From assembly GCA_963808235.1 (NCBI GenBank), contig CAWEEQ010000004.1, positions 32,001 to 96,000 on the forward strand: a stretch of 64,000 bases of DNA. The letters run 5' to 3'. Shown piece by piece: positions 37,999 to 64,000 of this stretch; positions within the stretch are counted from its first letter, which is position 1, and each line of letters starts with the position of its first letter. The notes below the pieces were generated by a model that was not told the origin of the DNA, ran no database searches, and saw nothing but the letters and a program-made list of their open reading frames with translations. The position numbers and the translations under genes were made by a program. This DNA is from an uncultured delta proteobacterium. GTDB taxonomy: Bacteria; Desulfobacterota; Binatia; Binatales; Binataceae.

Positions 37999-38403
37999 CT
38001 ATCGCCAAGTGAGTTGATTCTTCACCGTGACGACGCCCTCGATGTTCTGCGCAAGTAAAGTCGCCCGCTTTGCATCGTTCGCCGATGCTACGACTCCGCT
38101 CAATTGCACGGTGCCGTGGTCGCAGTCGACGACGACTGGATATTTATCCGAGATGCCCTTGTCGGCCAGTGAAGTCTTCACCTCGGTTATTATCAGGTCA
38201 TCGTGCGCGCGCTCGGCGGGAGAATTATAGTGATGCTCAGCCGACGATTGTACGGTGTCGTGCTCGAGGTTTATCGACTTGGTCGTGGCTATTTCGTTAT
38301 GCGAGGGCGCCGGCGAGTCCTGTTGCGCGTGAACTCGAAGCGCCAGTGCGAGTCCTACTACCACACCGCACAGCACAGTGGAGATTAATTTTTTGTGTCT
38401 CAT
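37999..38403 (-). CDS. secreted BON-domain protein
   Basis: signal peptide; D..IT.EVK..L, G.V.LSG.V, GVVTVKNQL. Confidence 0.8.
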   Translation of the reverse strand: MRHKKLISTVLCGVVVGLALALRVHAQQDSPAPSHNEIATTKSINLEHDTVQSSAEHHYNSPAERAHDDLIITEVKTSLADKGISDKYPVVVDCDHGTVQLSGVVASANDAKRATLLAQNIEGVVTVKNQLTWR

Positions 38404-38453
38404 GATTTGGATGCCTGGTGCACGAGGAATCGATTCCCCGTGCACCCCTGTTC

Positions 38454-38825
38454 TTAGTCAGTGCTCTCGTTGTAGGTCTTCTTCTGATAAGTCTGAGTCT
38501 CCGCAGTCGGCGCCATTGGGGCTGGCGCGACCACTACAGGAGCCGGCGTCACCGTGGTCGACTCGCTGTGATACGCATTGACACTTTCCGCACTCGAGTT
38601 GTCGCCGGTCTCAGTGGAGTGCGACGCGCTCTTTTCCTCGGTGGTATTGATCCTCGAAGGAGGTGAAGTCACCACGGTCACCGGCGCTGGCGCGGGCTGC
38701 ACGTAGGAAGTGCTGGTACTGGTAGTTTCTTTGACGCGGTCAGTTGATTCGCCGCATCCACTCACAAATGGAATGATGACCGCGCTCAATGCGGAGAGCG
38801 CAATCAAACGTCCTGCTTTGTTCAT
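38454..38825 (-). CDS. Thr/Ser/Pro-rich lipoprotein
   Basis: lipobox VSGC, RBS AGGAGG, low-complexity body. Confidence 0.7.
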   Translation of the reverse strand: MNKAGRLIALSALSAVIIPFVSGCGESTDRVKETTSTSTSYVQPAPAPVTVVTSPPSRINTTEEKSASHSTETGDNSSAESVNAYHSESTTVTPAPVVVAPAPMAPTAETQTYQKKTYNESTD

Positions 38826-38907
38826 TTCCGATAGCCTCCTTGGCTCTGTCGACGGTTAACTGGCGGTCGAGACTGATGCCCGCGGGCTCCCGCCACGTTA
38901 AGAGGAG

Positions 38908-38923
38908 AGCAAAACCGGGACCA
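38908..38923 (-). promoter_or_regulatory. sigma54 promoter TGGTCC-CGGTT-TTGCT
   Basis: GG-N10-GC upstream of 38825. Confidence 0.65.
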
Positions 38924-39142
38924 CATAGGTGCGATTAACTTACTGACTTATAGTAACGACGATTTATCGACGCGGGTTAAACTCAGGCGGGTAATTGCTT
39001 CCCTATGGTTCCGCGAGTACCCACTAACCCCGATTCCTCGGCTGCGAATCGCTTACGAGATGCCGACGAAGCTCTCGTTCCGCGCTCAGCCAATCTTCCT
39101 GTATTGGCCGTGGCGACGACCTCGAGAATGAATTCGTGCATT

Positions 39143-39442
39143 TCAGTCATTACTCAGTGGAAATATCGATACTTCGTTATTGACTATCTGCACATCGGCC
39201 AGGCTGTCGGCCACAAATTCCGCGTGCTCAGCTGCGTCCCATGAGTCAGCTCGACCCGGAAGCGTAATCACTCCACGATCGGTGTGAACCTTAATCACGT
39301 TTTGGGCGGCTACCTGCCCTTGCTTCTCCCAAGTTTCGCCGTGGCGCCTGCTCGACGAATTAATCACGCAAAGAGCGGAGCCCACGATAATGAGACTGCC
39401 GAATATTCCGATTGCCAAGATCGCTGGATAGTTTCGCTTCAT
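39143..39442 (-). CDS. small BON-domain protein (possibly degenerate)
   Basis: TM/signal then IKVHTDRGVITL.G.ADSW..V..VNNEV. Confidence 0.6.
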   Translation of the reverse strand: MKRNYPAILAIGIFGSLIIVGSALCVINSSSRRHGETWEKQGQVAAQNVIKVHTDRGVITLPGRADSWDAAEHAEFVADSLADVQIVNNEVSIFPLSND

Positions 39443-39494
39443 TTTTGCTCACTCCTGGTTAGGCGGTCGAAGGCCCAGGCACGAGGATAAGAGG

Positions 39495-39510
39495 AGCAAC
39501 GGCCATACCA
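39495..39510 (-). promoter_or_regulatory. sigma54 promoter TGGTAT-GGCCG-TTGCT
   Basis: GG-N10-GC upstream of 39442. Confidence 0.7.
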
Positions 39511-39679
39511 TCCGTGAAAGCGGTTTAATGGAGCATTTCTTTACAGCAGTTGTGAAATATTTTCCTGAATACCGACCGAAAGAACCCCATTTGGCAAGAA
39601 GTACCGAAGGCGCAGAAATGCCTCGATTCTGTGCGGAACGCGCGAAAATAGGCGCTTATTGCAGCATCGCGCTCCCGCG

Positions 39680-39695
39680 TGGCTCAAATGTTGCG
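39680..39695 (+). promoter_or_regulatory. sigma54 promoter TGGCTC-AAATG-TTGCG
   Basis: GG-N10-GC upstream of 39763. Confidence 0.65.
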
Positions 39696-39762
39696 TTTTC
39701 TCGAAGTACGCAGACTGCCGTTTCGATCTTCAAGCGGCGTCGATGAGAAGGAGGTAAATTCC

Positions 39763-39993
39763 ATGAAGAGCATCGTAGTATTCGGCGCAATCATCGCATT
39801 GCTCGGACTGATCGCGTTCGCGATACCTTCATTCAATACGCACAAAACCGAAGACGTTGCCAAGCTCGGCGATCTGAAGCTCGAAGCCAACACCGAGGAG
39901 ACCCACTTCATTCCTCCTCTACTTAGTGAAGGCGCGATATTACTCGGGGTACTGATTATCGGCGCAGGAGTACTGACTAATCGCCAGTCCTGA
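39763..39993 (+). CDS. small two-TM protein (DUF3185-like)
   Basis: RBS AAGGAGGT; TM - DVAKLGDLKL..IPP - TM. Confidence 0.7.
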   Translation: MKSIVVFGAIIALLGLIAFAIPSFNTHKTEDVAKLGDLKLEANTEETHFIPPLLSEGAILLGVLIIGAGVLTNRQS

Positions 39994-40062
39994 GCCAGCG
40001 AATACTCGGGAGGGTCTTCAAATAGCAAGTCGAAGCAGCGTTCGGAGGAAAGACTTACTAAT

Positions 40063-40215
40063 CTAGACCCTGCCCAGCAACGCCAGGACCAGCACTATAA
40101 CGAGAACCGTTCCAAGCGCTCCGCTCGGGAAATAACCCCAGTTAGCGCTGTAGGGCCACGCAGGCAACGCGCCGAGAAGCAGGACAACTAGTATGACCAA
40201 TAGTATCAAGTTCAT
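40063..40215 (-). CDS. DUF3309 family small membrane protein
   Basis: LLGALPAWPYSANWGYFPSG. Confidence 0.85.
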   Translation of the reverse strand: MNLILLVILVVLLLGALPAWPYSANWGYFPSGALGTVLVIVLVLALLGRV

Positions 40216-40367
40216 TTTGTTCTCCTGAAGTTTGGGACCGCACCCGGGTTTACATCGTGTGAGCAACCAGGTACCAAATCACGATCAGCGAGAGAGGAAC
40301 GCCGAGAATCCATGCTACTGCGTAACGCATTTGCTATCTCCTTAAAGTACTGAACTCAAAGAAGTAA

Positions 40368-40383
40368 AGCAGAAACCCTGCCA
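40368..40383 (-). promoter_or_regulatory. sigma54 promoter TGGCAG-GGTTT-CTGCT
   Basis: GG-N10-GC about 150 bp upstream of DUF3309 gene. Confidence 0.5.
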
Positions 40384-40754
40384 CTGACTACTGCGCCTTA
40401 GCGCGTACTCAGTTGATCTGATATCACCCTGCGTCTTGTACTCACGGATTTATTACCGGGCGTGGAAGTCCCAAAAGTGTACTTGAACTCGCATGTGGCA
40501 GGGGTCGAATGGCTATTGCGGTCGAATAGCTATTGCGGTCTTCGAAGGATGTGCGTGCACAGACTATTCGGGCGATGCTATTCGTGCCGGCGCCTGGGTC
40601 AGCATCGCGGCAACAGATTCAGATAGGACGGAGACCGATTCGAAGTTGAGTCGGGGAATTGGCGGCAGGACCGAGTCGCGGACGCGTCTCAGCCGTGTTG
40701 GGGCTGAGTCGGGGAGTGTGGTCCGCGACGCCGGCCACTGCCGGGAAACCGTAG

Positions 40755-40838
40755 TCAGGCGTTCTTTCCGCAGCAGTCCTTGTACATCTTGCCGGAACCG
40801 CACGGACACGGGGCGGACGGATTAGGTGTGCTCGCCAT
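40755..40838 (-). CDS. 27-aa stand-alone SEC-C motif peptide MASTPNPSAPCPCGSGKMYKDCCGKNA
   Basis: not in ORF track; RBS AAGGAGGT; CPCGSGKxYKxCC motif. Confidence 0.85.
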   Translation of the reverse strand: MASTPNPSAPCPCGSGKMYKDCCGKNA

Positions 40839-40881
40839 ATATATAGCACCTCCTTCTTAGTCGAGAGCGTAATTAAATCGA

Positions 40882-40897
40882 CGCAATCGGCATGCCA
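40882..40897 (-). promoter_or_regulatory. sigma54 promoter TGGCAT-GCCGA-TTGCG
   Basis: GG-N10-GC upstream of SEC-C peptide. Confidence 0.75.
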
Positions 40898-41101
40898 TCG
40901 TCGTCGAGGATTCGGCGATTGAGTATCGCAGGGACTACGGGCATTCAGTTAGCGATTCGAGCTCGCGACCGCAAAACAATCGGTAAGTATGTAAAACTGA
41001 CCGCCAGTTCTATAGCCATTTCTTTCCGCAGACGTTCAGAAGGCGTCGTCGATATGGCGGTGGCGAAGGAAAGCGAGCGCGGAGTGCGACTATCGGCGGC
41101 G

Positions 41102-41776
41102 CTAGCGTCGCGAGCGCGCCGCTACGCGAGCTTGTGCCTGACTGTCGTTCTGGAGCAGGTAGACTTTGGCCGCGGGCGCGGCGCGAATGACTTCGCTTGC
41201 GAAGTTCAAGCCGTTCGCACCCAGAATTTCTGAATCGCAAATGATATTGTCGAAGTCAGCTTCGGTCTCCAGGGCCTGGAGTCCCTCGGCCACCGACGCC
41301 GCGACGATCACGTCGCAACCGCTGCGCTCGAGCCCGCTTCTCATCGATGAGTCTGCAGTGACCTCGGTCTGTTCCTTTCCGATCAGCAGGACTCTCGTTC
41401 GCGGCCGGTCTTCACGAATCTGCGCGGTTGCGTTGGCCTCTGCGATTTCACGCTCGATGAGCGCGGTGCGGATCGCCCCGACGAGCTGTTCCGCGCGTAT
41501 GTAGTCCTGAAGATTCCGCACGCAGTCCACCGCCTTTTCGACCAGGTCCGCGAGACGGTCCATGTTTCCGGTCGACGGCGGCAACGGGTTCTGATGATGG
41601 CGCAGCAAGGCCACCCGCAGTCCGAGCGCGTTCAGAATGTCGTTCAGGTCGATAGCGGCCTGAAGGGCTACCAGACCGATCGGCGCGGGTATTCGCGCCG
41701 AGGTCTGGGAGCCCATAGCAGCAACTTCAGGATGTCGATCGGAAGCTACTTTTGCCGCATCGCCCAAAAGCATCAC
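41102..41776 (-). CDS. atypical receiver-domain protein with degenerate HisKA-like N-terminus
   Basis: AAIDLNDILNALGLRVALL helix pair; C-terminal REC-like FDNIICD..GANG. Confidence 0.55.
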   Translation of the reverse strand: MMLLGDAAKVASDRHPEVAAMGSQTSARIPAPIGLVALQAAIDLNDILNALGLRVALLRHHQNPLPPSTGNMDRLADLVEKAVDCVRNLQDYIRAEQLVGAIRTALIEREIAEANATAQIREDRPRTRVLLIGKEQTEVTADSSMRSGLERSGCDVIVAASVAEGLQALETEADFDNIICDSEILGANGLNFASEVIRAAPAAKVYLLQNDSQAQARVAARSRR

Positions 41777-41791
41777 ATCACGAGAGAACTA

Positions 41792-42205
41792 TCAGTCCGT
41801 GCGCGAAGCGCTCACGACGGTCAAATTGTTCTTCACCCGCCGGACGCCTTCGGTATGCTCGGCAATGTCGCGCGCGCGGTCAGCCGCCTCGCGCGAGGAC
41901 ACTTGTCCCTGCAGCGTGACCACTCCGGCCCTTGTGTACACGTTAATCGAGGCCGCGCCGAGGGCCGGATCATTGTGCAGCGCCTTTTTGACCCTCATGT
42001 TGACGGTCGTGTCCTTCACCTCGATCTTGGTGCCATGATACACGTCCTCGGCGGCGGCGGCGGTATCGGAACCGGCCTGCTTGAGGTTAGATCCCGCCGC
42101 GTGCATCGCGTCGCCGGCGGACTCCTGCGCGAACGCCGGCATCGCCATCGCGAGGCCCAGCAATACGGCTGGTGCAACGAATTTCAACGAGTGGTTTCTT
42201 TTCAT
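41792..42205 (-). CDS. secreted BON-domain (OsmY-like) protein
   Basis: signal peptide AFA; GVVTLQGQV, EGVRRVKNNL. Confidence 0.85.
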   Translation of the reverse strand: MKRNHSLKFVAPAVLLGLAMAMPAFAQESAGDAMHAAGSNLKQAGSDTAAAAEDVYHGTKIEVKDTTVNMRVKKALHNDPALGAASINVYTRAGVVTLQGQVSSREAADRARDIAEHTEGVRRVKNNLTVVSASRTD

Positions 42206-42233
42206 AATTGGTCTCCCTTTTGACGGGATTTCC

Positions 42234-42428
42234 TTATTCAACGCCTTGCGACTTGAACCATTTCTCGATCGCTTCGCGCTGGTCGCCGGAGCGCTCCTGG
42301 ATCTTTCCGACCAGCTTTTCCATGCTGCCCTGCGCCTGGCGAAGATCATCGTCGGTAATCTGTCCCCATTTGCGTTTGATTTCGCCAGTCAACTGCTTCA
42401 GTTTTCCCTTTGCCTGATCGGTGTTCAT
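42234..42428 (-). CDS. CsbD family stress protein
   Basis: MNTDQAKGK.KQL.GEIKRKWGQITDDDL. Confidence 0.9.
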   Translation of the reverse strand: MNTDQAKGKLKQLTGEIKRKWGQITDDDLRQAQGSMEKLVGKIQERSGDQREAIEKWFKSQGVE

Positions 42429-42489
42429 TACAAACCTCTCCAGTCCTGTTTGATTAATCAGACCAACTCCGGTCTGACACAGATTATCA

Positions 42490-42505
42490 AGCAATGGTGA
42501 GGCCA
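42490..42505 (-). promoter_or_regulatory. sigma54 promoter TGGCCT-CACCA-TTGCT
   Basis: GG-N10-GC upstream of csbD-like gene. Confidence 0.75.
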
Positions 42506-42602
42506 GTAGAATAAAGCCCCGAATTACAAGGCTTTTCTTGCGGTACCGGTAGTAATTTCTTCACGCTTCAGGGCGAAAAACAGAACGGCGGGCGGAAGTT
42601 CC

Positions 42603-43430
42603 TCAGCGCATCGAGTTTGTGGAGGTCCCGGCGATTTTGGGCAGTGGATCGAGCAGGGTCGAAGCTTTGCTTGCGAGGCTGGTCGCGGCGACGTTGTCAC
42701 GATCGGCCAGCGCTTTCTTGGCATCCTGGAGGAGTCGTTGCGCGAGGACGTCGCGCGCGGTTTCGTCAGCGCTCAGGTCGTTGCGATCGATTCGCTTTTC
42801 GATCTTGTCGACCTCATCGATTAACTTTGCGGCGTTCGCAGGATCAGGTCCGCTCGAAGATCCTATCGCCGGAAGACTCGCAGTAGCTACGCTGGCGCTC
42901 TCCAAACCGGGCGTGCCTTTGGCGTGCGCCGCCGGAGTCGATCCGGAAGCGCCTGCTGCGAACGCTGCTCCTGGAGTTCCGGCCAAGGAAGCAACCGGGT
43001 TCGCTTCCAGACTGACGACATTTTTGCCGGCGCCCTCACCTTCGACTTGCGATGCTGCATTCGCGGCCTGGCGCGCTTGCTTTGAGGCTTGCAGCGCTTT
43101 TTCCGACGCCTGGGCCGCGCTCTCGGAAGCCTGCGATGCCTTCTCGACCGCGATATGCGCTTCGTTTGCGGATTTCTTGTGACCGCGCGCCTGTCCGGCC
43201 ACCGGCGTCGGTGTCGGCGACGATGTTGCGGACTCGGCTGGTGTAGCTACGGACGCCTCCGATCGAGGCGGCTCAGCCCTGGAGCCAAAGAAACGCCCAA
43301 CGCTCGAGGTTCCGCCCGCGCAACCGGAGAACAAAATCGGCTGCGCTGAAAGCAGACCAAACAGCAACCACAAGGCGAGCCGAGCAGCCTGCCTATGCGG
43401 CGCTGGAGACCGACGTTTTGGCGGGCGCAT
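42603..43430 (-). CDS. Ala/Ser-rich lipoprotein with helical C-terminal domain
   Basis: lipobox FSGC; overlaps kinase 3-prime end. Confidence 0.65.
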   Translation of the reverse strand: MRPPKRRSPAPHRQAARLALWLLFGLLSAQPILFSGCAGGTSSVGRFFGSRAEPPRSEASVATPAESATSSPTPTPVAGQARGHKKSANEAHIAVEKASQASESAAQASEKALQASKQARQAANAASQVEGEGAGKNVVSLEANPVASLAGTPGAAFAAGASGSTPAAHAKGTPGLESASVATASLPAIGSSSGPDPANAAKLIDEVDKIEKRIDRNDLSADETARDVLAQRLLQDAKKALADRDNVAATSLASKASTLLDPLPKIAGTSTNSMR

Positions 43431-45207
43431 TAGCAGCAATCGGAAAAGTGACCGTGCATACCGTACCCTGGCCGACTTGCGAGTCTATAGAAATCTTTCC
43501 GCCGTTCAACTCGATCGCGCGCATCGCAAACGGCAAGCCAAGACCGCTGCCGTTGCTCTTGGTCGTGTAATACAGATCGAAGATTCTATCCAATTGCTCT
43601 TTCGGAATTCCATGCCCCTGGTCGGCGATGCTTACCTCGACCGACGATCCGCCCGTCTTGCTCGACAACTTGATGGCGCCGCCATCGCGCATCGCCTGGT
43701 CGGCGTTGGTTATCACATTGGTCAGCGCCTCGTAAATCATGCCGCGGTCTGCGCGGATGGGCGGCATCGGCGAGTCCAGTTGATATTCGACTTTGATTCG
43801 ATCGCCGATCACATGAGAGCCGAGTTCCTTCAGAAGCTCATTCATGTCGAAATCAGTGACCTTCAAATCCTCGGGGCGCATAAATCGCAGCAAGGCTTCA
43901 ACCGCCTCGTCAAGACGGGTCACTTCGCGCCGCAACCTTTCGACATGCCTTGCGCCTAGCTCGCCTGCTTCACGGCTCAGGAGTTCGAGCCGCATGTTCA
44001 TTCCATGCAAAGGACTGCGCAGTTGATGAGCCAGGCCCGAAATCAGCGTGCCCAGCCGGGCCAGCCGGTTGGAAGCGTCGAGCGCGGTTTCGAGCTCGAT
44101 AACCGGCTGCAGATCGCGCAGAACGATCAGCAGGCCGGCCGGAATTCGTTCGTGGCCGAGGCGGAAAAACGAAACCAGAAAACTGCTGGAATCCCCAAGC
44201 GTCAGCGGGACATCATGAGCTTCGGTGCCCGCGACCGTTGACTGTACGAGCGCGAGGACCGGATGCGAACTGTCGAGAACCGCGGTGAGCGGGCCGCCTT
44301 CAAGCGTGTCTTTCCCCTTCTTCGGTGCAAGCAGTGCTTGCGCTATCTCGTTCACGAACAGCACAACTCCATTGGCATCGAGCAGCACGACGCCGTCCTG
44401 AATCGATCGAATCGCGTCGAAGAGGCCGGTCTGATCGTTGTCCAAGCGAGATCGATCGGCCCTGACCTGGCGCGACAATTCGTTGAATTTCTCCGCCAGG
44501 GTGCTTAGTTCGCCGCCGCCCGCGACTTTGACTTCGGCGGGATTCGCGCCGGCCTTGAGCTGGTCGAAGCCGCGAGCCAACACCGCGAACTGTTCGAGGA
44601 TTCGGTTGGCAATCAGCGACACCACCAGCAAGGCGCCGGCGATGACCAATCCCGCGGTGGTGACGATCACAATCAACAAGTGGCGAACCTTGTCGGCGAT
44701 CAGCGCCGTGGTCACGCCGATCGAAATGGTCGCGACAGGCCGGTTGTTGATTTCCACCCGGCGGCGCGCTTCGAACACCTTGGAGGTCATAAGGTTGGGC
44801 AGCGATGCGAACAGCATCCATCGTCCCGCATCCGCATCGAGTTCCGCGATGGACGCCATGTTGAGCGCCGGCCTTCCCTCACCTTCCCCGTGCGCCGCGA
44901 CGACGATGGTGCCGTCGGCTCCGACAATCGCCGCATTCACGACTCCGGGGCCGAAGGCGACAGTGGAATCGAGCACTTTCCTGACTGGTTCGCTATTCTT
45001 CAGCTTCTCGGTGACGTTGGCGCCGTTGCCTTGTTCCAGCGCGAGGCGCACCTGTTCGAAGATCTGCTCGATCATGAAGTCGGTGGACCGGGACATGTCC
45101 TCGATCATCGTGTCGATTCTGGAATCGAGCGAGATGAGGCTCAGCGCGATGATCGGAACGAGCATCAATGCGAGAGCGATGAGGGCCAGTCTTGCTCGCA
45201 GTTGCAT
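43393..45207 (-). CDS. sensor histidine kinase (TM, HAMP, PAS, HisKA, HATPase)
   Basis: LAHQLRSPL, NVITNA, DQGHG, GSGLGL. Confidence 0.93.
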   Translation of the reverse strand: MQLRARLALIALALMLVPIIALSLISLDSRIDTMIEDMSRSTDFMIEQIFEQVRLALEQGNGANVTEKLKNSEPVRKVLDSTVAFGPGVVNAAIVGADGTIVVAAHGEGEGRPALNMASIAELDADAGRWMLFASLPNLMTSKVFEARRRVEINNRPVATISIGVTTALIADKVRHLLIVIVTTAGLVIAGALLVVSLIANRILEQFAVLARGFDQLKAGANPAEVKVAGGGELSTLAEKFNELSRQVRADRSRLDNDQTGLFDAIRSIQDGVVLLDANGVVLFVNEIAQALLAPKKGKDTLEGGPLTAVLDSSHPVLALVQSTVAGTEAHDVPLTLGDSSSFLVSFFRLGHERIPAGLLIVLRDLQPVIELETALDASNRLARLGTLISGLAHQLRSPLHGMNMRLELLSREAGELGARHVERLRREVTRLDEAVEALLRFMRPEDLKVTDFDMNELLKELGSHVIGDRIKVEYQLDSPMPPIRADRGMIYEALTNVITNADQAMRDGGAIKLSSKTGGSSVEVSIADQGHGIPKEQLDRIFDLYYTTKSNGSGLGLPFAMRAIELNGGKISIDSQVGQGTVCTVTFPIAANAPAKTSVSSAA

Positions 45208-45489
45208 TAATTACCCGCGTCAATTTTGGTCCGGCTCAGAATGTCGTCGCAAGGCCAAACCGCGAGAGACGACTAACGCTCCGAGGGCCGAGTCGTTCAA
45301 GCTTGTTGTACAGAGTTCTCGCGCCGAGGCCAAGAACCTCGGCGCGCGACTTTTATTCGTACCGTGAATTCGATTGTGCGCGCGATCATTTCATTCTCGA
45401 CCGTTCTCCATAAATGCGATTCAAAATCAGGTTGGGAAATGGCGGTCCCTTAACCAGTAAGCTAGTGAATTGCACGCGTCTGGCGTAGC

Positions 45490-46251
45490 ATGCAGACCGA
45501 TGCGTCGGTCACGATGAAAAGGTCCCCGCGATCAGATAGAACGAGAAGTCTCAAGGGACTCGCCAACATTTCCTGGCTCGCGGCGGAACAACTGGAGAAA
45601 CTTGCCGACGCACTGACGGTGACCCGTCACGAAAAGCGGAGCACTATTTTCTCTGACAAACATTCCTCCGAAGCCGCTTTCATTTTGCTTTCTGGTGTTG
45701 CTCGCATTACCTGCGTCAATCGCAAGGGCCGGCGAACAATGGCGATCTTGTTGTCGCCCGGACTGATTCCGGAGTTCCCGTTAGCCGTAGCCGGCATCAC
45801 GTACAGCTTTCGCTGCGAAGCCGTTACCAGTTGCCAGGTTGGAACCACTGGATTCGATAACTTCATGAAAATCTGCCTAGGGATCGGATCGGCAAGCTTC
45901 CGGAAGATGGCCGCCGGTCTTTTAGGACGTTGGGACCGGGTGCACCTGCGCTGCTCCAACTTGATGGCATGCACGATTGAGGAACGCCTGGCGCTCACGC
46001 TGCTCGATTTGACCGAGAATTTCGGTGTTCGCAGACTGCACGGGGGAGTGCTGCTGGGCGAGCTGATCCGGCAAGGCGATTTGGCTGAGCTAGTCGGAGC
46101 CTCGCGACCTCGAGTAACGGAACATTTGCGCAAGCTTACGCAGAAACACCTGATTTCCCGGAACAGTCAGGGCATGGTGGTAGACGACAAAGGACTGAGA
46201 AGCTTTCTGCTGGAAAGAGATCGCGAAGGGTTCTCTGGGGAACTCCGTTAG
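45490..46251 (+). CDS. Crp/Fnr family transcriptional regulator
   Basis: cNMP-like barrel (ILLSGVARI), EERLALTLLDL, LAELVGASRPRVT. Confidence 0.88.
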   Translation: MQTDASVTMKRSPRSDRTRSLKGLANISWLAAEQLEKLADALTVTRHEKRSTIFSDKHSSEAAFILLSGVARITCVNRKGRRTMAILLSPGLIPEFPLAVAGITYSFRCEAVTSCQVGTTGFDNFMKICLGIGSASFRKMAAGLLGRWDRVHLRCSNLMACTIEERLALTLLDLTENFGVRRLHGGVLLGELIRQGDLAELVGASRPRVTEHLRKLTQKHLISRNSQGMVVDDKGLRSFLLERDREGFSGELR

Positions 46252-46476
46252 TTCGATTTTCCTTACATTGCTACGTATACGCATGAGATGCTGATCCGGA
46301 CAGCATCGGCGCGGATTTTGCCCGCCGGAAAGATTCCACCACGCGCTTGATAATTTGTCCGTGGAATCCGAAACACCTTGGTGCTTCGTCCGCACTTTAT
46401 TGGTTCAGATAAACTATGAGCGAATGGACTCTCAACGCGCAGTCGATCAAGGGCAAGATTCCCCAGGGGTACCGCC

Positions 46477-47460
46477 ATGCCAAGTGAAATATTGCGAGAG
46501 CTCATTCTTGAGCTTAGCGAATCCGATCGTACCGAGATCATCCGCGAGGCAGGGATACCTGACGACCGGCCGGCGCTCCTGCGCGGAGGCGCAGAGGATG
46601 GACCTGTGGAGGAGGCCGATTCCTGGGTAACTCAGAATGGCGCCAAGATACTTCCGCATCTCTTACGAAGGATCGATCCTTCAGACAGTGAGATGGTCCA
46701 GCTCGTTCAAAGCGGAATGTTGCCTTTCGACCCAAACTTGCTGGAACCGCGCGAATTTATTGTTCGATTCAACCATCCCGCGATGCGCAGTGCGCCCGAT
46801 GGCGGGCTGCCGCTCTCCGAAGTCGCGGCCACCTCATTAGCGCTGACTGAACTCGTTACCTCGCTGTTGTCCGCGAATCGCTCGTTTGGCGCGGACACCG
46901 TGATGCCGACGGTACGGGTTGCCGCTGGCTCGGTGGACTTTTCCGCAATGGGCACGGGTTTGATCGCGGCCGGGTTGGGTCTGCTCGCTGCGTGCGGGAT
47001 CGGTGTGATTTCTGCCCCTGTTATCGCAGGCACGGCGGTCCTCTCCAGTGCTATCGATCTGACGCTGAATTGGCAGAAGCGAAGTTCCGAAAAGGGAAGA
47101 AGCGACGGAGAGAAGGCAGGAGCCGTTGCCGAGAGGGAGAGGGCCGATGCCGACCGGGCAAGAGCCGATGACAAAAAAATCGAAGTGGAGACAATAGGCC
47201 AGGAACTGGAGAATGAGATCAAGCGGGTTCGATTGGGCAACTTGCCGGTTCAGGCGGAAGCCCATAAGGCGGAGAAGTCCGAAACGCGTCCACCGTCATT
47301 CTTCGTACCTTTTGCGCTAATCGAGCAAACCGCGCAAGAAAATGGTTTGGCGGCGGCGCACGGTGTCCATCTCGTCAATCGAGGATTGCCGTCCCTATTC
47401 GCGATTCTGCGCGTGATGCCCGGACTGCTGATTACCGTCGAGAATAGAGTGCTGCAATAG
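46477..47460 (+). CDS. hypothetical protein with Gly/Ala-rich hydrophobic hairpin and charged coiled segment
   Basis: 327-aa ORF filling the gap between Crp and response regulator genes. Confidence 0.55.
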   Translation: MPSEILRELILELSESDRTEIIREAGIPDDRPALLRGGAEDGPVEEADSWVTQNGAKILPHLLRRIDPSDSEMVQLVQSGMLPFDPNLLEPREFIVRFNHPAMRSAPDGGLPLSEVAATSLALTELVTSLLSANRSFGADTVMPTVRVAAGSVDFSAMGTGLIAAGLGLLAACGIGVISAPVIAGTAVLSSAIDLTLNWQKRSSEKGRSDGEKAGAVAERERADADRARADDKKIEVETIGQELENEIKRVRLGNLPVQAEAHKAEKSETRPPSFFVPFALIEQTAQENGLAAAHGVHLVNRGLPSLFAILRVMPGLLITVENRVLQ

Positions 47461-47497
47461 ACCGCGGCGGCCGGTTGCGTTTCTCCGGCGGGCGCGA

Positions 47498-48859
47498 CTA
47501 ACGCTCCGGGCCGAACCGTTCCAACTTGTTGTACAAGGTCTTCGCGCTGACGCCGAGAATCTCCGCCGCGCGAGTTTTGTTCCCGCCGGTGAATTCGATG
47601 GTTCGCGAGATCATTTCCTTCTCGACATCCTCCAGCGACGATCCGATTGGGATCTTGATAAAGCTGCCGTCGTTGGTGCTCGCGGCGCGGAAGTCGTCGG
47701 GCAAATCCGACTTGCGGATCATCCGCCCATCGCAAACGATCAGCGCGCGCTCGAGAACGTTGCGGAGTTGGCGCACGTTTCCCGGCCACGGATGCGCCAT
47801 CAGCGCCTTCATGCATTCCTCGTCCACCCCGACCACATCTTTCTTGTTCTGCTCGGCGTAATGACCGACGAACATTTGAATGAGCTGCGGCATGTCGTCG
47901 GCGCGCTCGCGCAGCGGGGGAAGCTGGATCGTGAAAACATTTAATCGGTAATACAGATCGGAGCGGAGCTTGCCGTCGCGAACTGCCTGCTCCACGTCCC
48001 GATTCGAGGCCGCCAGCACGCGCACATCCAGCGGTATCTCGGCCGTGCCGCCGACCCGGCGCACGCGGCCTTCCTCGATCACGCGCAGCAGCTTGGCCTG
48101 CAACTCGACTTTCATCTCGGTAATCTCGTCGAGCAGCAAAGTGCCGCCGTTGGCAACTTCGAAGCATCCTTCCTTGCGCCGATCCGCTCCGGTAAACGAG
48201 CCGCGCTCGTGGCCGAACAGCTCGCTCTCCATCAGAGTCTCTGGAATCGCGGCGCAGTTCACCGGCACGTAGGCCGCATCGCGACGCGGCGATAGCTCGT
48301 GAATGGTGCGAGCCACCAGCTCCTTGCCGGTGCCGCTATCGCCGGTTATCACCACTGACGCTGACGACTGTGCGAGCCGTTCGATGGCCGAGATCACGCG
48401 GCGCATCGCGAGCGAGCGCCCGAACAGCGGCCCGAGTTCACCGACGTTGGCCAGTCTTCGCCGCAGGGTCGTATTTTCCTCGCGAATGGAAATATTGTCG
48501 GCGATGTTTCGCAACACTCGCTCCAAATGCGCAGGGTCGACGGGCTTGCGCAGATAGTCGATGGCGCCGAGCTTGAGCGCCTCGACGGCGTCGGGAATCT
48601 CGCCTTGTCCGGAGATCATTATGGCCGGGAGGCGGATTCCGAGCTCCTGGATATCGCGCAGCAGCTCGAGGCCGTTTTTGCGCGGCATCCTCAAGTCCGA
48701 GACAAGGATGTGGGGATTGAAGCTGCTGATCAGCTCCAGCGCCTTGATGCCATCTTCCGCTATTTCGATGCGGAAGCCCCAGGCCGCCAGGGACTCGCCC
48801 CATTCCTCGTGGGTGTTTACGTCGTCCTCAGCAATCAGAACTCGAATTTCGTTGGTCAT
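47498..48859 (-). CDS. sigma54-dependent response regulator (NtrC/AtoC family)
   Basis: REC (EDD, SDLRMP, KP), GDSGTGKE, GSFTGA, DEITE, WPGNVRQL, Fis HTH. Confidence 0.95.
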   Translation of the reverse strand: MTNEIRVLIAEDDVNTHEEWGESLAAWGFRIEIAEDGIKALELISSFNPHILVSDLRMPRKNGLELLRDIQELGIRLPAIMISGQGEIPDAVEALKLGAIDYLRKPVDPAHLERVLRNIADNISIREENTTLRRRLANVGELGPLFGRSLAMRRVISAIERLAQSSASVVITGDSGTGKELVARTIHELSPRRDAAYVPVNCAAIPETLMESELFGHERGSFTGADRRKEGCFEVANGGTLLLDEITEMKVELQAKLLRVIEEGRVRRVGGTAEIPLDVRVLAASNRDVEQAVRDGKLRSDLYYRLNVFTIQLPPLRERADDMPQLIQMFVGHYAEQNKKDVVGVDEECMKALMAHPWPGNVRQLRNVLERALIVCDGRMIRKSDLPDDFRAASTNDGSFIKIPIGSSLEDVEKEMISRTIEFTGGNKTRAAEILGVSAKTLYNKLERFGPER

Positions 48860-48951
48860 AGGTTTGAGCGGGAGAAGTTCGTCTCGGATGATTTCAATAG
48901 TCGAAGTCGTTTCGTGACCGAGCGCATCGGCGCCGCATGTGCACCAGATAC

Positions 48952-48967
48952 AGCAATACTAGGACCG
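48952..48967 (-). promoter_or_regulatory. sigma54 promoter CGGTCC-TAGTA-TTGCT
   Basis: GG-N10-GC upstream of the response regulator. Confidence 0.55.
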
Positions 48968-49079
48968 AATGCCGGTGGTGCTCAAGGACATGTCAAAGAG
49001 AGCTAAAGCATATTGAAGCTATTGCTTTCTGCAAGGTCGATCGGCAATTTTTACCGCATTCGCCTCTACGTTATCGAAC

Positions 49080-49092
49080 TATCAAACATTTG
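49080..49092 (+). promoter_or_regulatory. IHF binding site TATCAA-ACAT-TTG
   Basis: exact match to WATCAA-N4-TTR, between candidate enhancer 49042..49056 and promoter 49106. Confidence 0.65.
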
Positions 49093-49105
49093 CAGCGCCG
49101 TACAG

Positions 49106-49121
49106 TGGCAGATGACTTGCT
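49106..49121 (+). promoter_or_regulatory. sigma54 promoter TGGCAG-ATGAC-TTGCT
   Basis: GG-N10-GC upstream of 49187. Confidence 0.75.
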
Positions 49122-49186
49122 TCTTAAATCCCGAGGCGGCCGGATTCACAATTTCAATTATGCGACCGGCGTCCAGGGAGAGCAAA

Positions 49187-49435: not shown

Positions 49436-49441
49436 CAGGCG

Positions 49442-50463: not shown

Positions 50464-50479
50464 TGGCATAGTAGTTGCT
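50464..50479 (+). promoter_or_regulatory. sigma54 promoter TGGCAT-AGTAG-TTGCT
   Basis: GG-N10-GC upstream of DUF1328 gene. Confidence 0.78.
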
Positions 50480-51349: not shown

Positions 51350-51365
51350 TGGCACGCGCGTTGCT
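51350..51365 (+). promoter_or_regulatory. sigma54 promoter TGGCAC-GCGCG-TTGCT (consensus)
   Basis: perfect TGGCAC-N5-TTGCW upstream of 51441. Confidence 0.85.
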
Positions 51366-51842: not shown

Positions 51843-51878
51843 TCAGTACGGCGCTGGCAGCACTACGGAGATACTCAC

Positions 51879-52394: not shown

Positions 52395-52506
52395 TGCGAT
52401 TCGTTCGCAACACCGCTACTTCGATTGCTCTCGGTCGCCGGACAAACACCGTCGCCTGAGAGCACTTTCCTATCATCCTTGATTGCGTCGGTGCCGGAGA
52501 GGCTCT

Positions 52507-54458: not shown

Positions 54459-54471
54459 CTTGGGCGAAACA

Positions 54472-59959: not shown

Positions 59960-60749
59960 GTGCTCGACCTAGAAGAATGGCGCATCCTGCTAGCGAACTG
60001 TACGTCGTGTGTTCGCAACTCAAATCTGTCCTCGCTAGACAACGTTCCCGACGCTTGGACTTTCAACCGCGCGACGAACACACACTCGGGGCCAGCTTTG
60101 ATGGGATGCTCCGATGGAAAAGAATATTGGCTTAAGGGTCGCCCCGACCAACTACGGGAAATCTTCATAGAGCAAATTGTCGGTTCTCTAGGAATTAGAC
60201 TAGGTGCGCCAGTTCCGCCCATTACACTTGTCAAGCTTCCTGAGATCGATCCGCGACCGCGAAGCTCGGATAAGCCATTTCGATGTCGGTTACGTGCACG
60301 GATCGCAGAACCAAACCGACTGCACCGATAGAATGGCTATCGCTTACGCCGATCAGCCGGAGAATCGGCCACGGTTCGCTGCAATTGCGGTGCTTTATAC
60401 GTGGACCCAAGCCAGTGACCATCAGTTTATTTACAAGAAACAAGCGCCTAATTTAGCGTTCTCGTATGACCATGGACTGTTCTGCGGTGGCGGCAACTGG
60501 AACGCCGCATCACTTGCCGCCACGCCACCGATAACGGCTCTTGACCCCGTCTTCGGGATGGTTAAACTCACCCCCGATGAGCTCTTGCCCTTTTTCGACG
60601 CATTGGAAACAATCGAATTGGTCGAACTCGCCGCTGTTATCGCGGCACCGCCCGAGTCTTGGCGTGTCTCGACGGTTGATCGAGCCGCCCTCTGCCAATA
60701 CCTGGAACGGCGACGAGAAGAACTCCTGGCAGCTGAAGCCGATCACCAA
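59960..60749 (+). pseudogene. HipA-like kinase, frameshifted near 60245
   Basis: SGPALMGCSDGKEYWLK, E.IVG.LG..LGAPVP; second frame has SD..F and YDHG.F motifs. Confidence 0.65.
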
Positions 60750-61553
60750 ATGACTGTTCTTAATTATTCTGTTGTGCGATACGTTCCCGATCCAAATCGG
60801 GAAGAGTTCATCAATATAGGTCTCATACTGGCCGGTGAGGACGGCAGTTTTGCCAAGTGCAAATTCACCGAAGATTGGAGACGGGCACGGTGGTTTGGAT
60901 CGGAAAATCTCTCGTTCCTGAGAGATGTTCGGAAAGAACTCGAAATCTTTGGCACTAGCCAAGCTGAATTCTTTGAGAGGGAATCGCTCGCTCATCATTT
61001 GAACGAGCTAGCTAAGAACTGGCAGAACTCAATTCAGTTTTCTCAGCCGCGCGCGTCGATTAACCCAAATCCACTCGCGTTGTTTGATAGGCTCTTCGAG
61101 CAATACGTGCAGAGAACCGAAGTGCGTCGAAAACACCGGTTGGGCAAACGAGTCGCGTTGTCCAATGTATACGAAGACTTGAGTGAATCTCTCTTTGAGA
61201 AATTTCCCAAGCCGCCTGATATTCTCCGCCGACAAACATTGAGCGGAGACGTTGCAGAACATCAGTTCGATTTAATGGTACAAAACGGCTCTCCACAACT
61301 GTGTATTGATGCGCTAGCTCCCCATGAAGACGACGTGTTCGAGCTAGATCAGAACGCGAGGGCTATTGCCTTCGATATCGAAGACACGAAGAAGAAGCAT
61401 CGACACCTTGTGCTTTGCGTCGTCGTCGCGGGAGCTTCCAATAAGCAATACAACGAAGCCAAACGGATATACGGAAAGTTGGGCGCCGATGTGACCAAAG
61501 ACGATTCGTTTCGCCACTGGGCCAAGGACGCCGTCAAAGAACTCTCGAAATAG
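60750..61553 (+). CDS. DUF3037 domain protein (in frame with the kinase C-terminal part as sequenced)
   Basis: YSVVRYVPDPNREEFINIGLIL, NSIQFSQPR, LFEQYV. Confidence 0.8.
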   Translation: MTVLNYSVVRYVPDPNREEFINIGLILAGEDGSFAKCKFTEDWRRARWFGSENLSFLRDVRKELEIFGTSQAEFFERESLAHHLNELAKNWQNSIQFSQPRASINPNPLALFDRLFEQYVQRTEVRRKHRLGKRVALSNVYEDLSESLFEKFPKPPDILRRQTLSGDVAEHQFDLMVQNGSPQLCIDALAPHEDDVFELDQNARAIAFDIEDTKKKHRHLVLCVVVAGASNKQYNEAKRIYGKLGADVTKDDSFRHWAKDAVKELSK

Positions 61554-61631: not shown

Positions 61632-61770
61632 CCATCGTCTGAGGGTTGGGTTCCACTCGCGGCGGCGCTCGCGCCCATCGTTTAAATCTTGCAGCTTGGT
61701 ACGCCGAAAATTTTACCCGGATCTTGGAAGGATCGTCGCGCCGGTTCAGGACTGATAGTTTCGCTTATTC
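61632..61770 (+). repeat. diverged direct repeat of 62970..63107
   Basis: includes ACGCCGAAAATTTTAC(C/G)CGGAT, 21/22 identical, and TGATAGTTTC. Confidence 0.75.
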
Positions 61771-61918: not shown

Positions 61919-61929
61919 AATCAGAAAGA

Positions 61930-62200
61930 GCATCGCTTCGTCCTTCGGGAATACTCAGGGCAGGCTCCGAGCATTTTACTTCGGTCGGGATGACGGAGGG
62001 GGAGCAGCGGGACGACTGAAAGAGAATCGCTCCGCCCCATGGGAATACTCGGGGCAGGTTCTTCGGGAATACTCAGGGCAGGGTTATCGAAAAAGAAATC
62101 GCTTCGCCCTTCGGGAATACTCAGGGCAGGCTCCGAGCACTTTGTTTCGGTCGGGACGACGGAGGGGACGATCCGGGAAAAAGGCATCGCTTCGCTCTTC
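61930..62200 (-). repeat. second cluster of the REP-like family seen at 28672..29080, inverted
   Basis: TTCGGTCGGGATGACGG and GGGAATACTCAGGGCAGG units. Confidence 0.75.
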
Positions 62201-62223
62201 GAGAATAGCGAAACTGGTCGAGA

Positions 62224-62703
62224 TCAATGTTTCATCACTTGCTCGACGATACGCATCATCTCCGCATACCTGTTCACAGCTGATGGCTGATGGACTACCT
62301 CGAACTTCAGTCCATCCGGTCCGAGAAAGTACACCGCATACCAGCCTTCCGGATCGTACGGGAACTCGCCGGGACCATCGAGGACCTTTGCACCGAGGCG
62401 CTTGGCCAGATCGCATGCCTGATCAACCTGCTCGCGCGTGTCGGTGTAGAAGGCGATGTGATGCAGCCCTACCTCGTAAACCTCGAATGGATGCTTGGCA
62501 AACTCAGGCTTTGCTTCCCAGAGATTCAACACCGCGCCGTTTCCATGGTTGACCGCTATCCTAACGCGCTGCCCATTCGGATTCCGGATCTCATCCCAAA
62601 TCTCATAGCCGAGGAACTCCAAGAACGGCTTGAAGAACTCCATAGCGTCAGTGAGATCGCTGACCGTGATACCAACGTGGCACATTGCTCCAAGCAGCGG
62701 CAT
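62224..62703 (-). CDS. VOC/glyoxalase family protein
   Basis: HVGITVSDL, GLHHIAF, YAVYFLGPDGLKFEVV. Confidence 0.85.
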   Translation of the reverse strand: MPLLGAMCHVGITVSDLTDAMEFFKPFLEFLGYEIWDEIRNPNGQRVRIAVNHGNGAVLNLWEAKPEFAKHPFEVYEVGLHHIAFYTDTREQVDQACDLAKRLGAKVLDGPGEFPYDPEGWYAVYFLGPDGLKFEVVHQPSAVNRYAEMMRIVEQVMKH

Positions 62704-62829
62704 AACTGAGCGTTGCCTCCGAGGATCAGTTCTTACCACGTCATACTGCGGCGAGATCAAGTCCCCGGCCTCCGCCACAGGGCGGCGAGGGGGGATCCCC
62801 TCGCGATCCCCCTGCTCAGAGCCCGCCAA

Positions 62830-62893
62830 GGTGGGTCAGTTTTACTTCGGCGACCTCGCGAATAGGTGGGTCAACATTCGACCGGCGTTGACA
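62830..62893. mobile_element. isolated IS21-family terminal region
   Basis: two GGTGGGTCA repeats ending ..GGCGTTGACA; no istA/istB nearby. Confidence 0.6.
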
Positions 62894-63122
62894 GGAATCG
62901 CTGCCACGTGCCGTTCGCGGCACAGAACGCGACCGTTACGTTGAGTGGCGCAAGAGGACGGGCCATATGCCAACGCCTGAAGATTGCGCTCCAATCGAGG
63001 CGGCCTCGCGTCGGTCGTTACGTCTTACTGGTTTGAAACGCCGAAAATTTTACGCGGATGATAGAGAGGTCGGCGTGCTGGTTTCACGATTGATAGTTTC
63101 ACTTTTCATGCAATCCGCCGAA

Positions 63123-63138
63123 TGGCAGGGGACTTGCA
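63123..63138 (+). promoter_or_regulatory. sigma54 promoter TGGCAG-GGGAC-TTGCA
   Basis: GG-N10-GC upstream of 63204. Confidence 0.75.
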
Positions 63139-63203
63139 CATTCATTGAACGGCATCAGGTTCGCCGAAGTCACGAGACGTTCAAAAATTTCGAGAGAAAA
63201 TTT

Positions 63204-63365
63204 ATGAAGTGCCGACATCAGGCCTGCAGCTGCAAAGCAGCGGCGGGTCGCGACTATTGCTCCAATGAATGCGAATCCGACACGCGCGATGAAGGCGCGA
63301 CGGACTGTCATTGCGGTCATGAAGAGTGTCGCGCGTCGAACGAGTCGCATCGCGACAGTACGTAA
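63204..63365 (+). CDS. bacterial metallothionein-like peptide
   Basis: CRHQACSC..YCSNEC..CHCGHEEC. Confidence 0.75.
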   Translation: MKCRHQACSCKAAAGRDYCSNECESDTRDEGATDCHCGHEECRASNESHRDST

Positions 63366-63461
63366 AATCCGTCCGCGTCAATAAGAAAATCACGCGGCGT
63401 CGGCTGCACGCTCGTTAAGGAAAAGGAGTCAACAACAATCCGCGAAAGGAGAAGGAGTGCC

Positions 63462-64000
63462 ATGAAAGGAAATGCGAAAGACAAGAACGGTTCGAAGAAA
63501 GCTCATGCGTCCTCCGCATCGAAGCGAACAGGCGAGAAGACCAACTCCCGGCAACCACGCAGTGGCGCCGGGGCGAATGCGATCGATCTCTTGATGAAGG
63601 ATCACGAAACTGTCCAGAACTTATTCGCTCAATTCGAGCGGGCTCGCGAAGATGCTCAGAAGAAGGCGATGCTGTTTGAAAAAATCAAAGACGAACTGCT
63701 GGTTCATACCAGGATCGAAGAGGAGATCTTCTATCCCGCTGTAAAGGAGATTGGTACCGGACAAGCGGTAAACGATATCGAACATTGCCGCGAGGACCAC
63801 GAGGAAGTCGACGAACTCCTCAACCAGTTGCAGTCGCTCAGTCCCGATGATTCCGATTTCGAAGAGAAGATGACGGACCTGATGGAAGCGGTGGCCAAGC
63901 ACATCGAGCTCGAGCAGAACGAAGTTTTCAAAGAGGCGCGCACCGGCTTGGCTGACGACAGGATCGAAGAACTGGGTCGCGAGATGAAAGAGCTCAAACA
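63462..64000 (+). CDS. hemerythrin (HHE) domain protein, runs off window end
   Basis: RBS AAGGAG; AIDLLMKDH, HTRIEEEIFYPA, EDHEEV, HIELEQ. Confidence 0.85.
   Translation, partial: MKGNAKDKNGSKKAHASSASKRTGEKTNSRQPRSGAGANAIDLLMKDHETVQNLFAQFERAREDAQKKAMLFEKIKDELLVHTRIEEEIFYPAVKEIGTGQAVNDIEHCREDHEEVDELLNQLQSLSPDDSDFEEKMTDLMEAVAKHIELEQNEVFKEARTGLADDRIEELGREMKELK

Follow-up and report, generated by a model that had tools for sequence, protein, structure and literature searches.

About ten predicted and conserved sigma-54 promoters on small envelope and stress genes beside one kinase/activator pair suggest an unusual wiring of the stress response in an uncultured Binataceae bacterium

Introduction

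General stress responses are textbook cases of sigma-70-family factor swapping (RpoS, SigB, EcfG), and osmY, csbD, ytjA, elaB/yqjD and yflT are members of RpoS, SigB or EcfG regulons in model bacteria. Promoters of sigma-54 (RpoN) carry GG and GC exactly 10 nucleotides (nt) apart in TGGCAC-N5-TTGCW-like boxes, the -24/-12 elements; the sigma-54 holoenzyme cannot open the promoter alone, and its stable closed complex remains silent as long as no ATPase acts, a mechanism that gives tight off-states and direct kinase control. ZraSR-ZraP and PspF-psp of enterobacteria are envelope-stress systems that combine sigma-54 with a dedicated activator. Here we analyze a 26-kb stretch (positions 37,999 to 64,000) of a 64,000-nt window of DNA from an uncultured soil bacterium of the Binataceae, in which about ten units of small envelope and stress genes with conserved, predicted sigma-54 promoters lie beside one kinase/activator pair, suggesting that the wiring of the stress response is unusual in this organism.

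In mechanism, this locus has its nearest counterparts in the Zra and Psp circuits and in those activator regulons of Desulfovibrio vulgaris that bear stress labels; it differs from them in size and gene set. Like Zra and Psp, it pairs a sensor with an NtrC-family activator and with putative sigma-54 promoters of small envelope-protecting proteins; the best NCBIfam matches of the activator are AtoC (428 bits) and ZraR (376 bits), and those of the kinase are AtoS and ZraS. Unlike Zra and Psp, which have one or two such promoters, it has ten or more, its gene content is of the RpoS/SigB type, and no sigma-54 site lies ahead of the regulator genes. In D. vulgaris, a bacterium likewise labelled deltaproteobacterial, response regulators of the sigma-54-activator class have stress roles according to excerpts of the published account, with DVU3305 listed under ‘general stress response’ and DVU1419 and DVU3381 under ‘envelope stress response’ (PMC4641369). 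The stress regulons in those excerpts comprise one to three operons, unlike the arrangement described here, and the main text of that paper does not mention CsbD or BON (PMC4641369).

In the Rrp2-RpoN-RpoS cascade of Borrelia, a sigma-54 activator likewise stands atop a stress or adaptation programme; there, sigma-54 drives rpoS, which in turn reads the targets, whereas here no rpoS was found and the stress genes themselves carry the boxes. In content, the locus resembles the RpoS regulon of E. coli, the SigB regulon of Bacillus, and the EcfG-PhyR regulons of Alphaproteobacteria, with genes for BON/OsmY-like, CsbD, DUF1328/YtjA and YflT proteins, and with Ku and DUF4142 genes past the window end, but it differs from them in -24/-12 promoters that need an ATPase activator. 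As the RpoS, SigB and PhyR models fall below their cut-offs here, the regulon is not a member of those three systems, though it may work alike. Sigma-54 promoters on CsbD, BON/OsmY or DUF1328 genes are not described in the open full-text literature that we searched, supplementary regulon tables aside.

Results

The window corresponds to C4:32001-96000 of a 4.59-Mb genome bin in four contigs (60% G+C, completeness 93%, contamination 1.9%). Eleven GG-N10-GC elements had been proposed in the initial annotation as sigma-54 promoters; all eleven were found, at or within 1–2 nt of where it had placed them, and ten carry TTGC, the exception being the element at 40369, which reads CTGC. Each element faces an open reading frame (ORF) with a Shine-Dalgarno-like sequence and a start 33–151 nt downstream, and the sites that we accept are intergenic and co-oriented with their genes. 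The bare GG-N10-GC pattern is not enriched in the window, with 914 matches against 879.5 ± 27.9 in shuffled sequence (10 of 100 shuffles reach 914). The longer TGGC-N8-TGC pattern is enriched, with 19 matches against 9.96 ± 2.95 and none of 100 shuffles reaching 19; 12 of these matches lie at 39680 or beyond. The enrichment is specific to spacing: TGG-N8-TTGC occurs 620 times in the genome and 14 times in the 26-kb stretch, while the controls TGG-N7-TTGC and TGG-N9-TTGC occur 417 and 741 times in the genome and once and three times in the stretch, respectively. The strict form TGGYAB-N5-TTGCW is found 30 times genome-wide, five of them in the stretch.

To these counts we added a 21-nt sigma-54 matrix trained on 38 intergenic, co-oriented sites outside C4:60,000-120,000, so that none of the claimed sites was used in building it. 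An earlier matrix iteration at a 9-bit threshold grew without stop (80, 158, 217, 272 sites) and was discarded. At ≥13 bits, the genome holds 180 matches (115 in the block-shuffled genome), with eight in the stretch against 1.02 expected (Poisson 1.2e-5); at ≥15 bits, it holds 83 (34 block-shuffled), with seven in the stretch against 0.47 expected (Poisson 6.7e-7), even though the stretch makes up 0.57% of the genome. Among the members of a sample of 2000 gene calls that have a full 200 nt upstream, scores of ≥13, ≥11, ≥9 and ≥6 bits occur in 1.1%, 1.7%, 3.7% and 10.2% of upstream regions. Measured by this yardstick, seven of the claimed sites are strong (39496, 40883, 42491, 49106, 50464, 51350 and 63123), that at 40369 is moderate, those at 38909 and 39680 are weak, and that at 48953 is at chance level (Table 1). 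A scan of positions 37900–52600 for sigma-70-consensus promoters returned two against 6.2 ± 2.7 in shuffled sequence, using an E. coli-type consensus that may not be the host's.

Elsewhere in the genome, the matrix picks classical sigma-54 targets, namely an ammonium transporter, Flp pilin/Tad genes, and kinase and activator genes, and the remaining predicted targets, likewise ordinary ones, comprise CoA metabolism, a second hemerythrin gene (C1:363024-363545; site 24.0, among the genome's best), and small membrane peptides. Two paralogous tail-anchored peptides of 57–59 amino acids (aa), at C2:60475-60654 and C4:211364-211537, have sites of 24.5 (the genome's best) and 19.3, and a 79-aa protein resembling the transglycosylase-associated family (C4:2382302-2382541) has one of 22.3. 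Four further sites lie past the window end, at window-equivalent positions 64646 (20.9), 66390 (13.9), 72459 (14.4) and 72654 (18.9), ahead of an unnamed 114-aa gene, DUF4142, Ku, and an unnamed 116-aa gene. Proteins of about 116 aa with the N-terminus ...LPxIFQG..ILP.QY..., for which no Pfam family was found, form an unnamed family; its gene at L009:8751-9101 (window-equivalent 72751-73101) has a site of 18.9, and a relative at L011, from about 11891 downward, has one of 16.4 and stands beside the activator orthologue of another genome.

Conservation is the strongest evidence that the predicted promoters are real. Around activator orthologues or near-identical copies, 20 loci of about 20 kb each were fetched for comparison; counts over these and other related genomes are non-independent. 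In alignments, the -24/-12 boxes form conserved islands amid diverged spacers. The CsbD promoter is kept in all 12 orthologous genus loci, this genome included, as TGGC[CT]-N-TTGC 63–76 nt before the Pfam match (scores 9.7–17.5), while a second CsbD paralogue, present in seven loci, reaches a best score of 4.2; where CsbD is missing, the same promoter precedes the next gene. Within the 20 fetched loci, the site lies directly upstream of DUF1328 in 4/4 and of CsbD in 5/5. Comparable retention is seen for BON99 (directly upstream in 11 of the 12 related loci with the gene, TGGTA..TTGC being conserved in the alignment), for the SEC-C peptide (five of six related loci), for the four-gene unit (5/5, scores 17.2–20.4), and for BON133/YflT (4/4). 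The moderate site at 40369 recurs in the form TGGC-N7-CTGC 60–61 nt upstream in all three orthologous loci examined; its bases also fit a weak terminator-like hairpin. The two weak sites fare less well. The one at 38909 has its counterpart in a single related locus (L125, 15.1), other loci carrying the gene behind BON99 without a site of its own, and among orthologues of the gene at 39680 one locus (L138) has a site of 15.2 directly upstream with the same TGGCTC start, while in two others the nearest site is about 700 nt off.

The DUF1328 gene extends this comparison to the class. In the wider genus sample, a site of ≥13 stands 47–55 nt from the match in 16 of 18 loci, and in other genera and families of the class a co-oriented site of ≥13 lies within the 255 nt upstream in 12 of 27. 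Across those 27 loci, matches occur at 1.74 per kb in the co-oriented upstream sequence versus 0.039 per strand-kb elsewhere, a density about 45-fold higher. In independent-matrix score, exactness of spacing, orientation and orthologous conservation, the sites behave as true sigma-54 promoters would, and this reading is supported. Three DUF1328 loci from other families (L204, L217 and L224) share a recurrent TGGCA-N-TCTCGCT, with CGC for TGC at -12 and scores of 11–13, which may be a lineage-specific -12 form under-scored by the matrix.

The genome encodes the machinery that such promoters need. A single Sigma54_DBD match (211 bits), with an RpoN box, marks rpoN, and there are 19 strong Sigma54_activat matches. 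The activator of the locus (47498-48859) is of the NtrC/AtoC type, with receiver (PF00072, 84 bits), Sigma54_activat (PF00158, 232 bits), AAA lid (PF25601, 92 bits) and HTH_8 (PF02954, 55 bits) domains, and with a GSFTGA loop at residue 220; this variant of the GAFTGA loop, the part that contacts sigma-54, is listed for DVU3220 in the excerpts of the D. vulgaris account (PMC4641369). It falls below every named NCBIfam equivalog cut-off: 428 < 714 for AtoC, 376 < 760 for ZraR, 390 < 559 for NtrC, and 274 < 444 for PspF. The accompanying kinase (43393-45207) is a membrane histidine kinase with HAMP, HisKA and HATPase_c domains. The 224-aa product of 41102-41776, the last gene of the CsbD unit, has only a C-terminal receiver domain recognizable, just under the Pfam cut-off; the gene is kept in the cluster across the genus, and its product could feed back on the kinase.

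In this genome, none of the RpoS, SigB/F/G and PhyR models reaches its cut-off, in keeping with the architecture suggested by the initial annotation. A whole-genome search with the RpoS model matched RpoD only, and under cut-off; this model passes its cut-off in none of 151 class genomes. The SigB/F/G model gave no match at 1e-40 here and passes in one of the 151, and the best PhyR score was 56 bits (cut-off 240), this model passing in one of 14 control genomes. Of 16 Sigma70_r2 matches in the genome, seven with open frames longer than 300 aa were scanned against NCBIfam, giving one RpoD, one RpoH-subfamily member (272 bits; cut-off 241), and five that match only models of the extracytoplasmic function (ECF) type; the other nine have ECF-sized open frames of 188–234 aa and were covered by the whole-genome model searches.

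Several observations link the promoters to the local activator. It is the sole strong Sigma54_activat match within C4:60-120 kb, and stress genes adjoin activator orthologues or near-identical copies in all 20 fetched loci, with the order activator–kinase–third gene kept in 15. Orthologues with at least 79% identity are present in 29 of 41 genus genomes. DUF1328 was found in 17 of these 29 and in none of the 12 genomes that lack such an orthologue (Fisher 3.8e-4, a value overstated because related genomes are not independent); omitting G018 and G023, which are flagged as unpublished, the counts are 17/28 and 0/11. CsbD of the sigma-54 type was also seen only in genomes holding an activator orthologue. 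Several genus genomes carry two activator copies, about 87% identical, each with part of the gene set (pairs L123/L137, L125/L138 and L122/L139): copy 1 stands with the kinase and the CsbD/BON part, and copy 2 with the four-gene unit, DUF1328, YflT and a 49%-identical paralogue. The genome described here has one copy and one merged cluster. Among named records, the closest with a relative of the activator are ‘delta proteobacterium’ metagenome bins (86%, 63% and 59% identity), followed by Acidobacteriota bins at about 50%. In 79 loci around distant homologues (L012-L090; 39–63% identity; Acidobacteriota, Nitrospirota and others), CsbD with a site was found once (L013, 59%), and one other locus has a YflT-like gene without a site, so that the neighbourhood is not a general property of the activator family.

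Positive autoregulation of the activator, which the initial annotation had proposed, is not supported. The GG-N10-GC ahead of its gene scores at chance level and was not accepted as a promoter, and 19 of the 20 related loci have no co-oriented match above 10 within 300 nt. In most loci, a TGCA-N7-TGCA-like block without GG at -24 is conserved 42–54 nt ahead of the activator start codon (window 48860-48950; L122-L139), e.g., TGCATGGTTGTTGCA, and this block might act as an operator or as a sigma-70-type promoter for the activator itself. As a shared enhancer, TGCA-N5-9-TGCA was rejected: it occurs upstream of one of 49 orthologous promoter regions and of none of 15 regions in the window genome.

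A better candidate for a shared upstream sequence is an AT-rich imperfect dyad, G-W-A-R-N3-T-T-W-C, found by expectation-maximization in the window promoters and in the upstream regions of their orthologues. At the promoters of CsbD, BON99 and the four-gene unit, it precedes the 21-nt promoter window by 34–43 nt, in either orientation, and at several promoters it stands about 70–85 nt upstream of the inferred start. A search for exact palindromes and k-mers upstream of 15 promoters revealed no dyad common to at least five, the best being a weak 6-mer, ATAACG, in six of the 15. At ≥14, the element stands upstream of 6/12 intergenic sigma-54 sites in C4:60-120 kb, 3/40 elsewhere and 0/110 inside coding sequence, a comparison that is in part circular, the first element matrix having been trained on the island's own promoters; rare outside the region, the element is not a general part of sigma-54 promoters in this genome. 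A second matrix, trained only on the CsbD, BON99 and four-gene-unit loci of other genomes, gives five matches of ≥14 in window 38000-73200 against 0.64 expected, and at ≥12 also marks promoters outside its training families, at 63123 (12.2) and at the 72459/72654 pair (15.9). The DUF1328, SEC-C and BON133 promoters have other conserved blocks.

Of the three element-bearing sites outside the region, two form a divergent pair at C4:913-917 kb, ahead of genes for a sugar nucleotidyltransferase and a GlgX-type debranching enzyme, and the third precedes a 91-aa gene. A GlgX-type debranching enzyme gene also borders the island itself (35856-37991), and its paralogue with the divergent nucleotidyltransferase (C4:913256-916850) has sigma-54 sites and the AT-rich element (19.3), which hints that glycogen or trehalose metabolism belongs to the same regulon. 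No sigma-54 site of ≥8 lies within reach of a good copy of the element at 61706-61720 (15.5), whose sequence is near-identical to that at 63043.

Discussion

Taken together, we consider it probable that at least nine or ten sigma-54 promoters of the locus are real and form one regulon of small envelope and stress units, most likely run by the adjacent kinase and NtrC/AtoC-type activator. In the mechanism that we propose, the membrane histidine kinase would phosphorylate the response regulator, and the phosphorylated activator may bind the AT-rich element. Since the sigma-54 holoenzyme cannot open promoters alone, the units should stay silent until this ATP-hydrolyzing activator is switched on. 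Each promoter would then drive a short unit encoding small envelope or stress proteins: five BON proteins, CsbD, DUF1328 and DUF3309 proteins, the SEC-C peptide, YflT, the tail-anchored and holin-X-like proteins, and the Cys-rich peptide with hemerythrin. Linkage, co-occurrence and the shared upstream element suggest that the local activator may serve all of the promoters. The programme may also be one of ‘general stress’, a label that we read from gene content, and from the same content we would guess at envelope, osmotic or drying stress as the stimulus. Of the RpoN-run general-stress architecture with a local, autoregulated activator that the initial annotation had envisaged, the sigma-54 sites, rpoN and the adjacent kinase/activator pair are supported, and autoregulation is not.

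Several findings weigh against this interpretation. Between 52.5 and 63 kb, about 10 kb carry no sigma-54 site, so that the ‘island’ is not continuous, and three of the eleven claimed sites are weak (38909, 39680 and 48953). In some genus genomes, the second, 49%-identical activator beside the DUF1328/YflT part implies that the local activator need not serve every promoter. The AT-rich element is poor or missing at the DUF1328 (10.0), SEC-C (9.2) and BON133 (0.6) promoters, part of its enrichment is circular as noted above, and an 11-bp dyad near -75 is short and close for a typical enhancer and could bind a different protein. Finally, at 93% completeness a sigma factor may have been overlooked, and many families of the class other than this one have two to four RpoD-like genes, possible stress sigmas.

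These points bear differently on the alternatives. The promoters might be real and yet not constitute one regulon, several of the 19 activators answering different signals for different subsets and the clustering reflecting gene neighbourhood. Consistent with this, only some half of the promoters show the element clearly, two near-identical activators in related genomes keep their own subsets with the 49% paralogue beside the DUF1328/YflT part, and the past-window sites belong to Ku, DUF4142 and unnamed genes whose kinship is less evident; we nevertheless hold it unlikely, given the single activator gene within C4:60-120 kb, the linkage of stress genes to its orthologues in 20/20 loci, and the finding of DUF1328 only in genomes that have one. 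That the sigma-54 sites are secondary, with the genes read mainly from sigma-70 or ECF promoters and one of about 13 ECF sigmas running the stress response, we regard as very unlikely: no intergenic block is better conserved than the -24/-12 boxes, which keep a constant spacing from the start codon throughout the genus and class, and the same alignments showed no conspicuous conserved block of the ECF or -35/-10 kind. Such a scheme could draw on the 14 of 16 Sigma70_r2 matches that are neither RpoD nor RpoH-like, five matching only ECF-type models and nine being ECF-sized, and on a sigma-70 scan whose E. coli-type consensus may miss this lineage's promoters.

Scarcely credible, in our view, is that the matches arise by chance or from other features, such as repeats, operators or hairpins, with no sigma-54 transcription at all. 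The unenriched bare pattern, the hairpin reading of the 40369 element and the chance-level site ahead of the activator would all be expected then, but enrichment of the full boxes, spacing specificity, an independent matrix, retention of both boxes at orthologous positions and the roughly 45-fold density ahead of DUF1328 genes would not, and for seven to eight sites the statistics and conservation already contradict it.

Building on the proposed regulon, sigma-54 with one dedicated two-component activator may have taken over the role of a general stress sigma factor here, perhaps across much of the class; we offer this as a tentative idea with the odds against it. In such a takeover, and this part is equally doubtful, CsbD, OsmY-like BON, YtjA and YflT proteins, along with Ku and glycogen/trehalose enzymes encoded elsewhere, would be fully off until ATP-driven promoter opening. 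If true, a widespread soil lineage would have rebuilt the same physiological programme on a different mechanism of transcription, adding a mechanistically different architecture to the bacterial general stress responses. An uncultured group would then have a concrete regulon, made up of one activator, some ten short promoters and a candidate element for binding, and the proposed control of the cell exterior by sigma-54 (PMC3162934) would be extended. If the locus is only a local envelope-stress circuit, it would be akin to the Zra and Psp systems, large but otherwise ordinary.

Features of the locus and neighbouring genes

Genes were called with a Markov model (4160 genes, 85% coding), GC3-based gene picking having been dropped as too blunt; this caller overlooks the 27-aa SEC-C peptide and the 53-aa Cys-rich peptide. 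Gene spacing suggests about ten promoters for about 22 genes. Coordinates are collected in Table 1.

Table 1. Predicted promoters, upstream elements and transcription units of the 26-kb stretch, in window coordinates (promoter and element scores in bits; a point marks features given no strand).
Feature	Position	Strand	Score	Remarks
Putative lipoprotein gene (38454-38825) and BON-domain protein gene (37999-38445)	37999..38825	-		8 nt apart; BON 50.6 bits
Weak -24/-12 element	38909..38923	-	9.3	Ahead of 123-aa putative lipoprotein gene and BON148
Strong sigma-54 promoter	39496..39510	-	19.6	BON99 gene (39143-39442)
AT-rich upstream element	39550..39564	.	20.5	Between divergent BON99 and 76-aa membrane protein (TM76) genes; 22.0 with matrix from other genomes only
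Weak -24/-12 element	39680..39694	+	5.4	76-aa membrane protein gene (39763-39993)
-24/-12 element with CTGC	40369..40383	-	11.5	26-aa peptide (40250-40330) and DUF3309 (40063-40215; 79.9 bits) genes
Strong sigma-54 promoter	40883..40897	-	19.6	27-aa SEC-C-motif peptide gene (40755-40838; SEC-C 31.5 bits)
Sigma-54 promoter	42491..42505	-	15.4	Unit of CsbD (42234-42428), BON149 (41792-42241) and receiver (REC)-domain protein (41102-41776)
AT-rich upstream element of CsbD promoter	42552..42566	-	20.7	23.5 leave-window-out; fixed distance in 15/15 aligned loci
Regulator unit	42603..48859	-		Activator (47498-48859), histidine kinase (43393-45207), low-complexity putative lipoprotein (42603-43439)
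GG-N10-GC ahead of activator gene	48953..48966	-	1.3	Chance-level; not accepted as promoter
AT-rich upstream element of 49106 promoter	49044..49058	.	14.2	Block kept in 6/6 aligned loci; <12 leave-window-out
Sigma-54 promoter	49106..49120	+	15.6	Four-gene unit (49187-50359)
Strong sigma-54 promoter	50464..50478	+	21.7	DUF1328 (YtjA-type) gene (50514-50675)
Strong sigma-54 promoter	51350..51364	+	20.0	BON133 (51441-51842) and YflT-domain stress protein (51879-52394) genes
AT-rich upstream element	63043..63057	.	15.8	About 65 nt ahead of 63123 promoter; 12.2 with matrix from other genomes and genes
Sigma-54 promoter	63123..63137	+	15.7	53-aa Cys/His-rich peptide (63204-63365) and hemerythrin (63462 onward, past window end) genes

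A Pfam scan covered 38 ORFs of the stretch and returned no families besides those given in Table 1 and in the text. It bore out most gene labels of the initial annotation: BON (37999-38445, 39143-39442, 41792-42241 and 51441-51842), DUF3309, SEC-C, CsbD, DUF1328, the YflT general stress protein and the activator. The product of 38454-38825 matches no family, and ‘lipoprotein’ describes the signal peptide plus Cys seen in its translation. Two further labels found no confirmation, the ‘ElaB-like’ 82-aa protein having no Pfam match even at E ≤ 1 and the ‘metallothionein’ being a 53-aa Cys/His-rich peptide with no Pfam family. The 82-aa protein is tail-anchored; its gene shares the four-gene unit with two small ORFs and with the gene of a membrane protein resembling holin-X (PF07332, 20.7 bits, under cut-off). 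The hemerythrin at the window end scores 70.2 bits.

The genes between 52.5 and 63 kb encode an AI-2E transporter/B12-binding fusion, CoA-metabolism, DUF2383, HipA-like/DUF3037 and glyoxalase proteins. At 59960-61553, a HipA_2-like kinase fragment and a DUF3037 protein lie in overlapping ORFs, with no sigma-54 site. A single ORF (52483-54402) encodes the fusion, its AI-2E-family transporter part carrying the B12-binding domain at the C-terminus; this ORF comes immediately after the YflT gene, and transcription from the 51350 promoter may run on into it.

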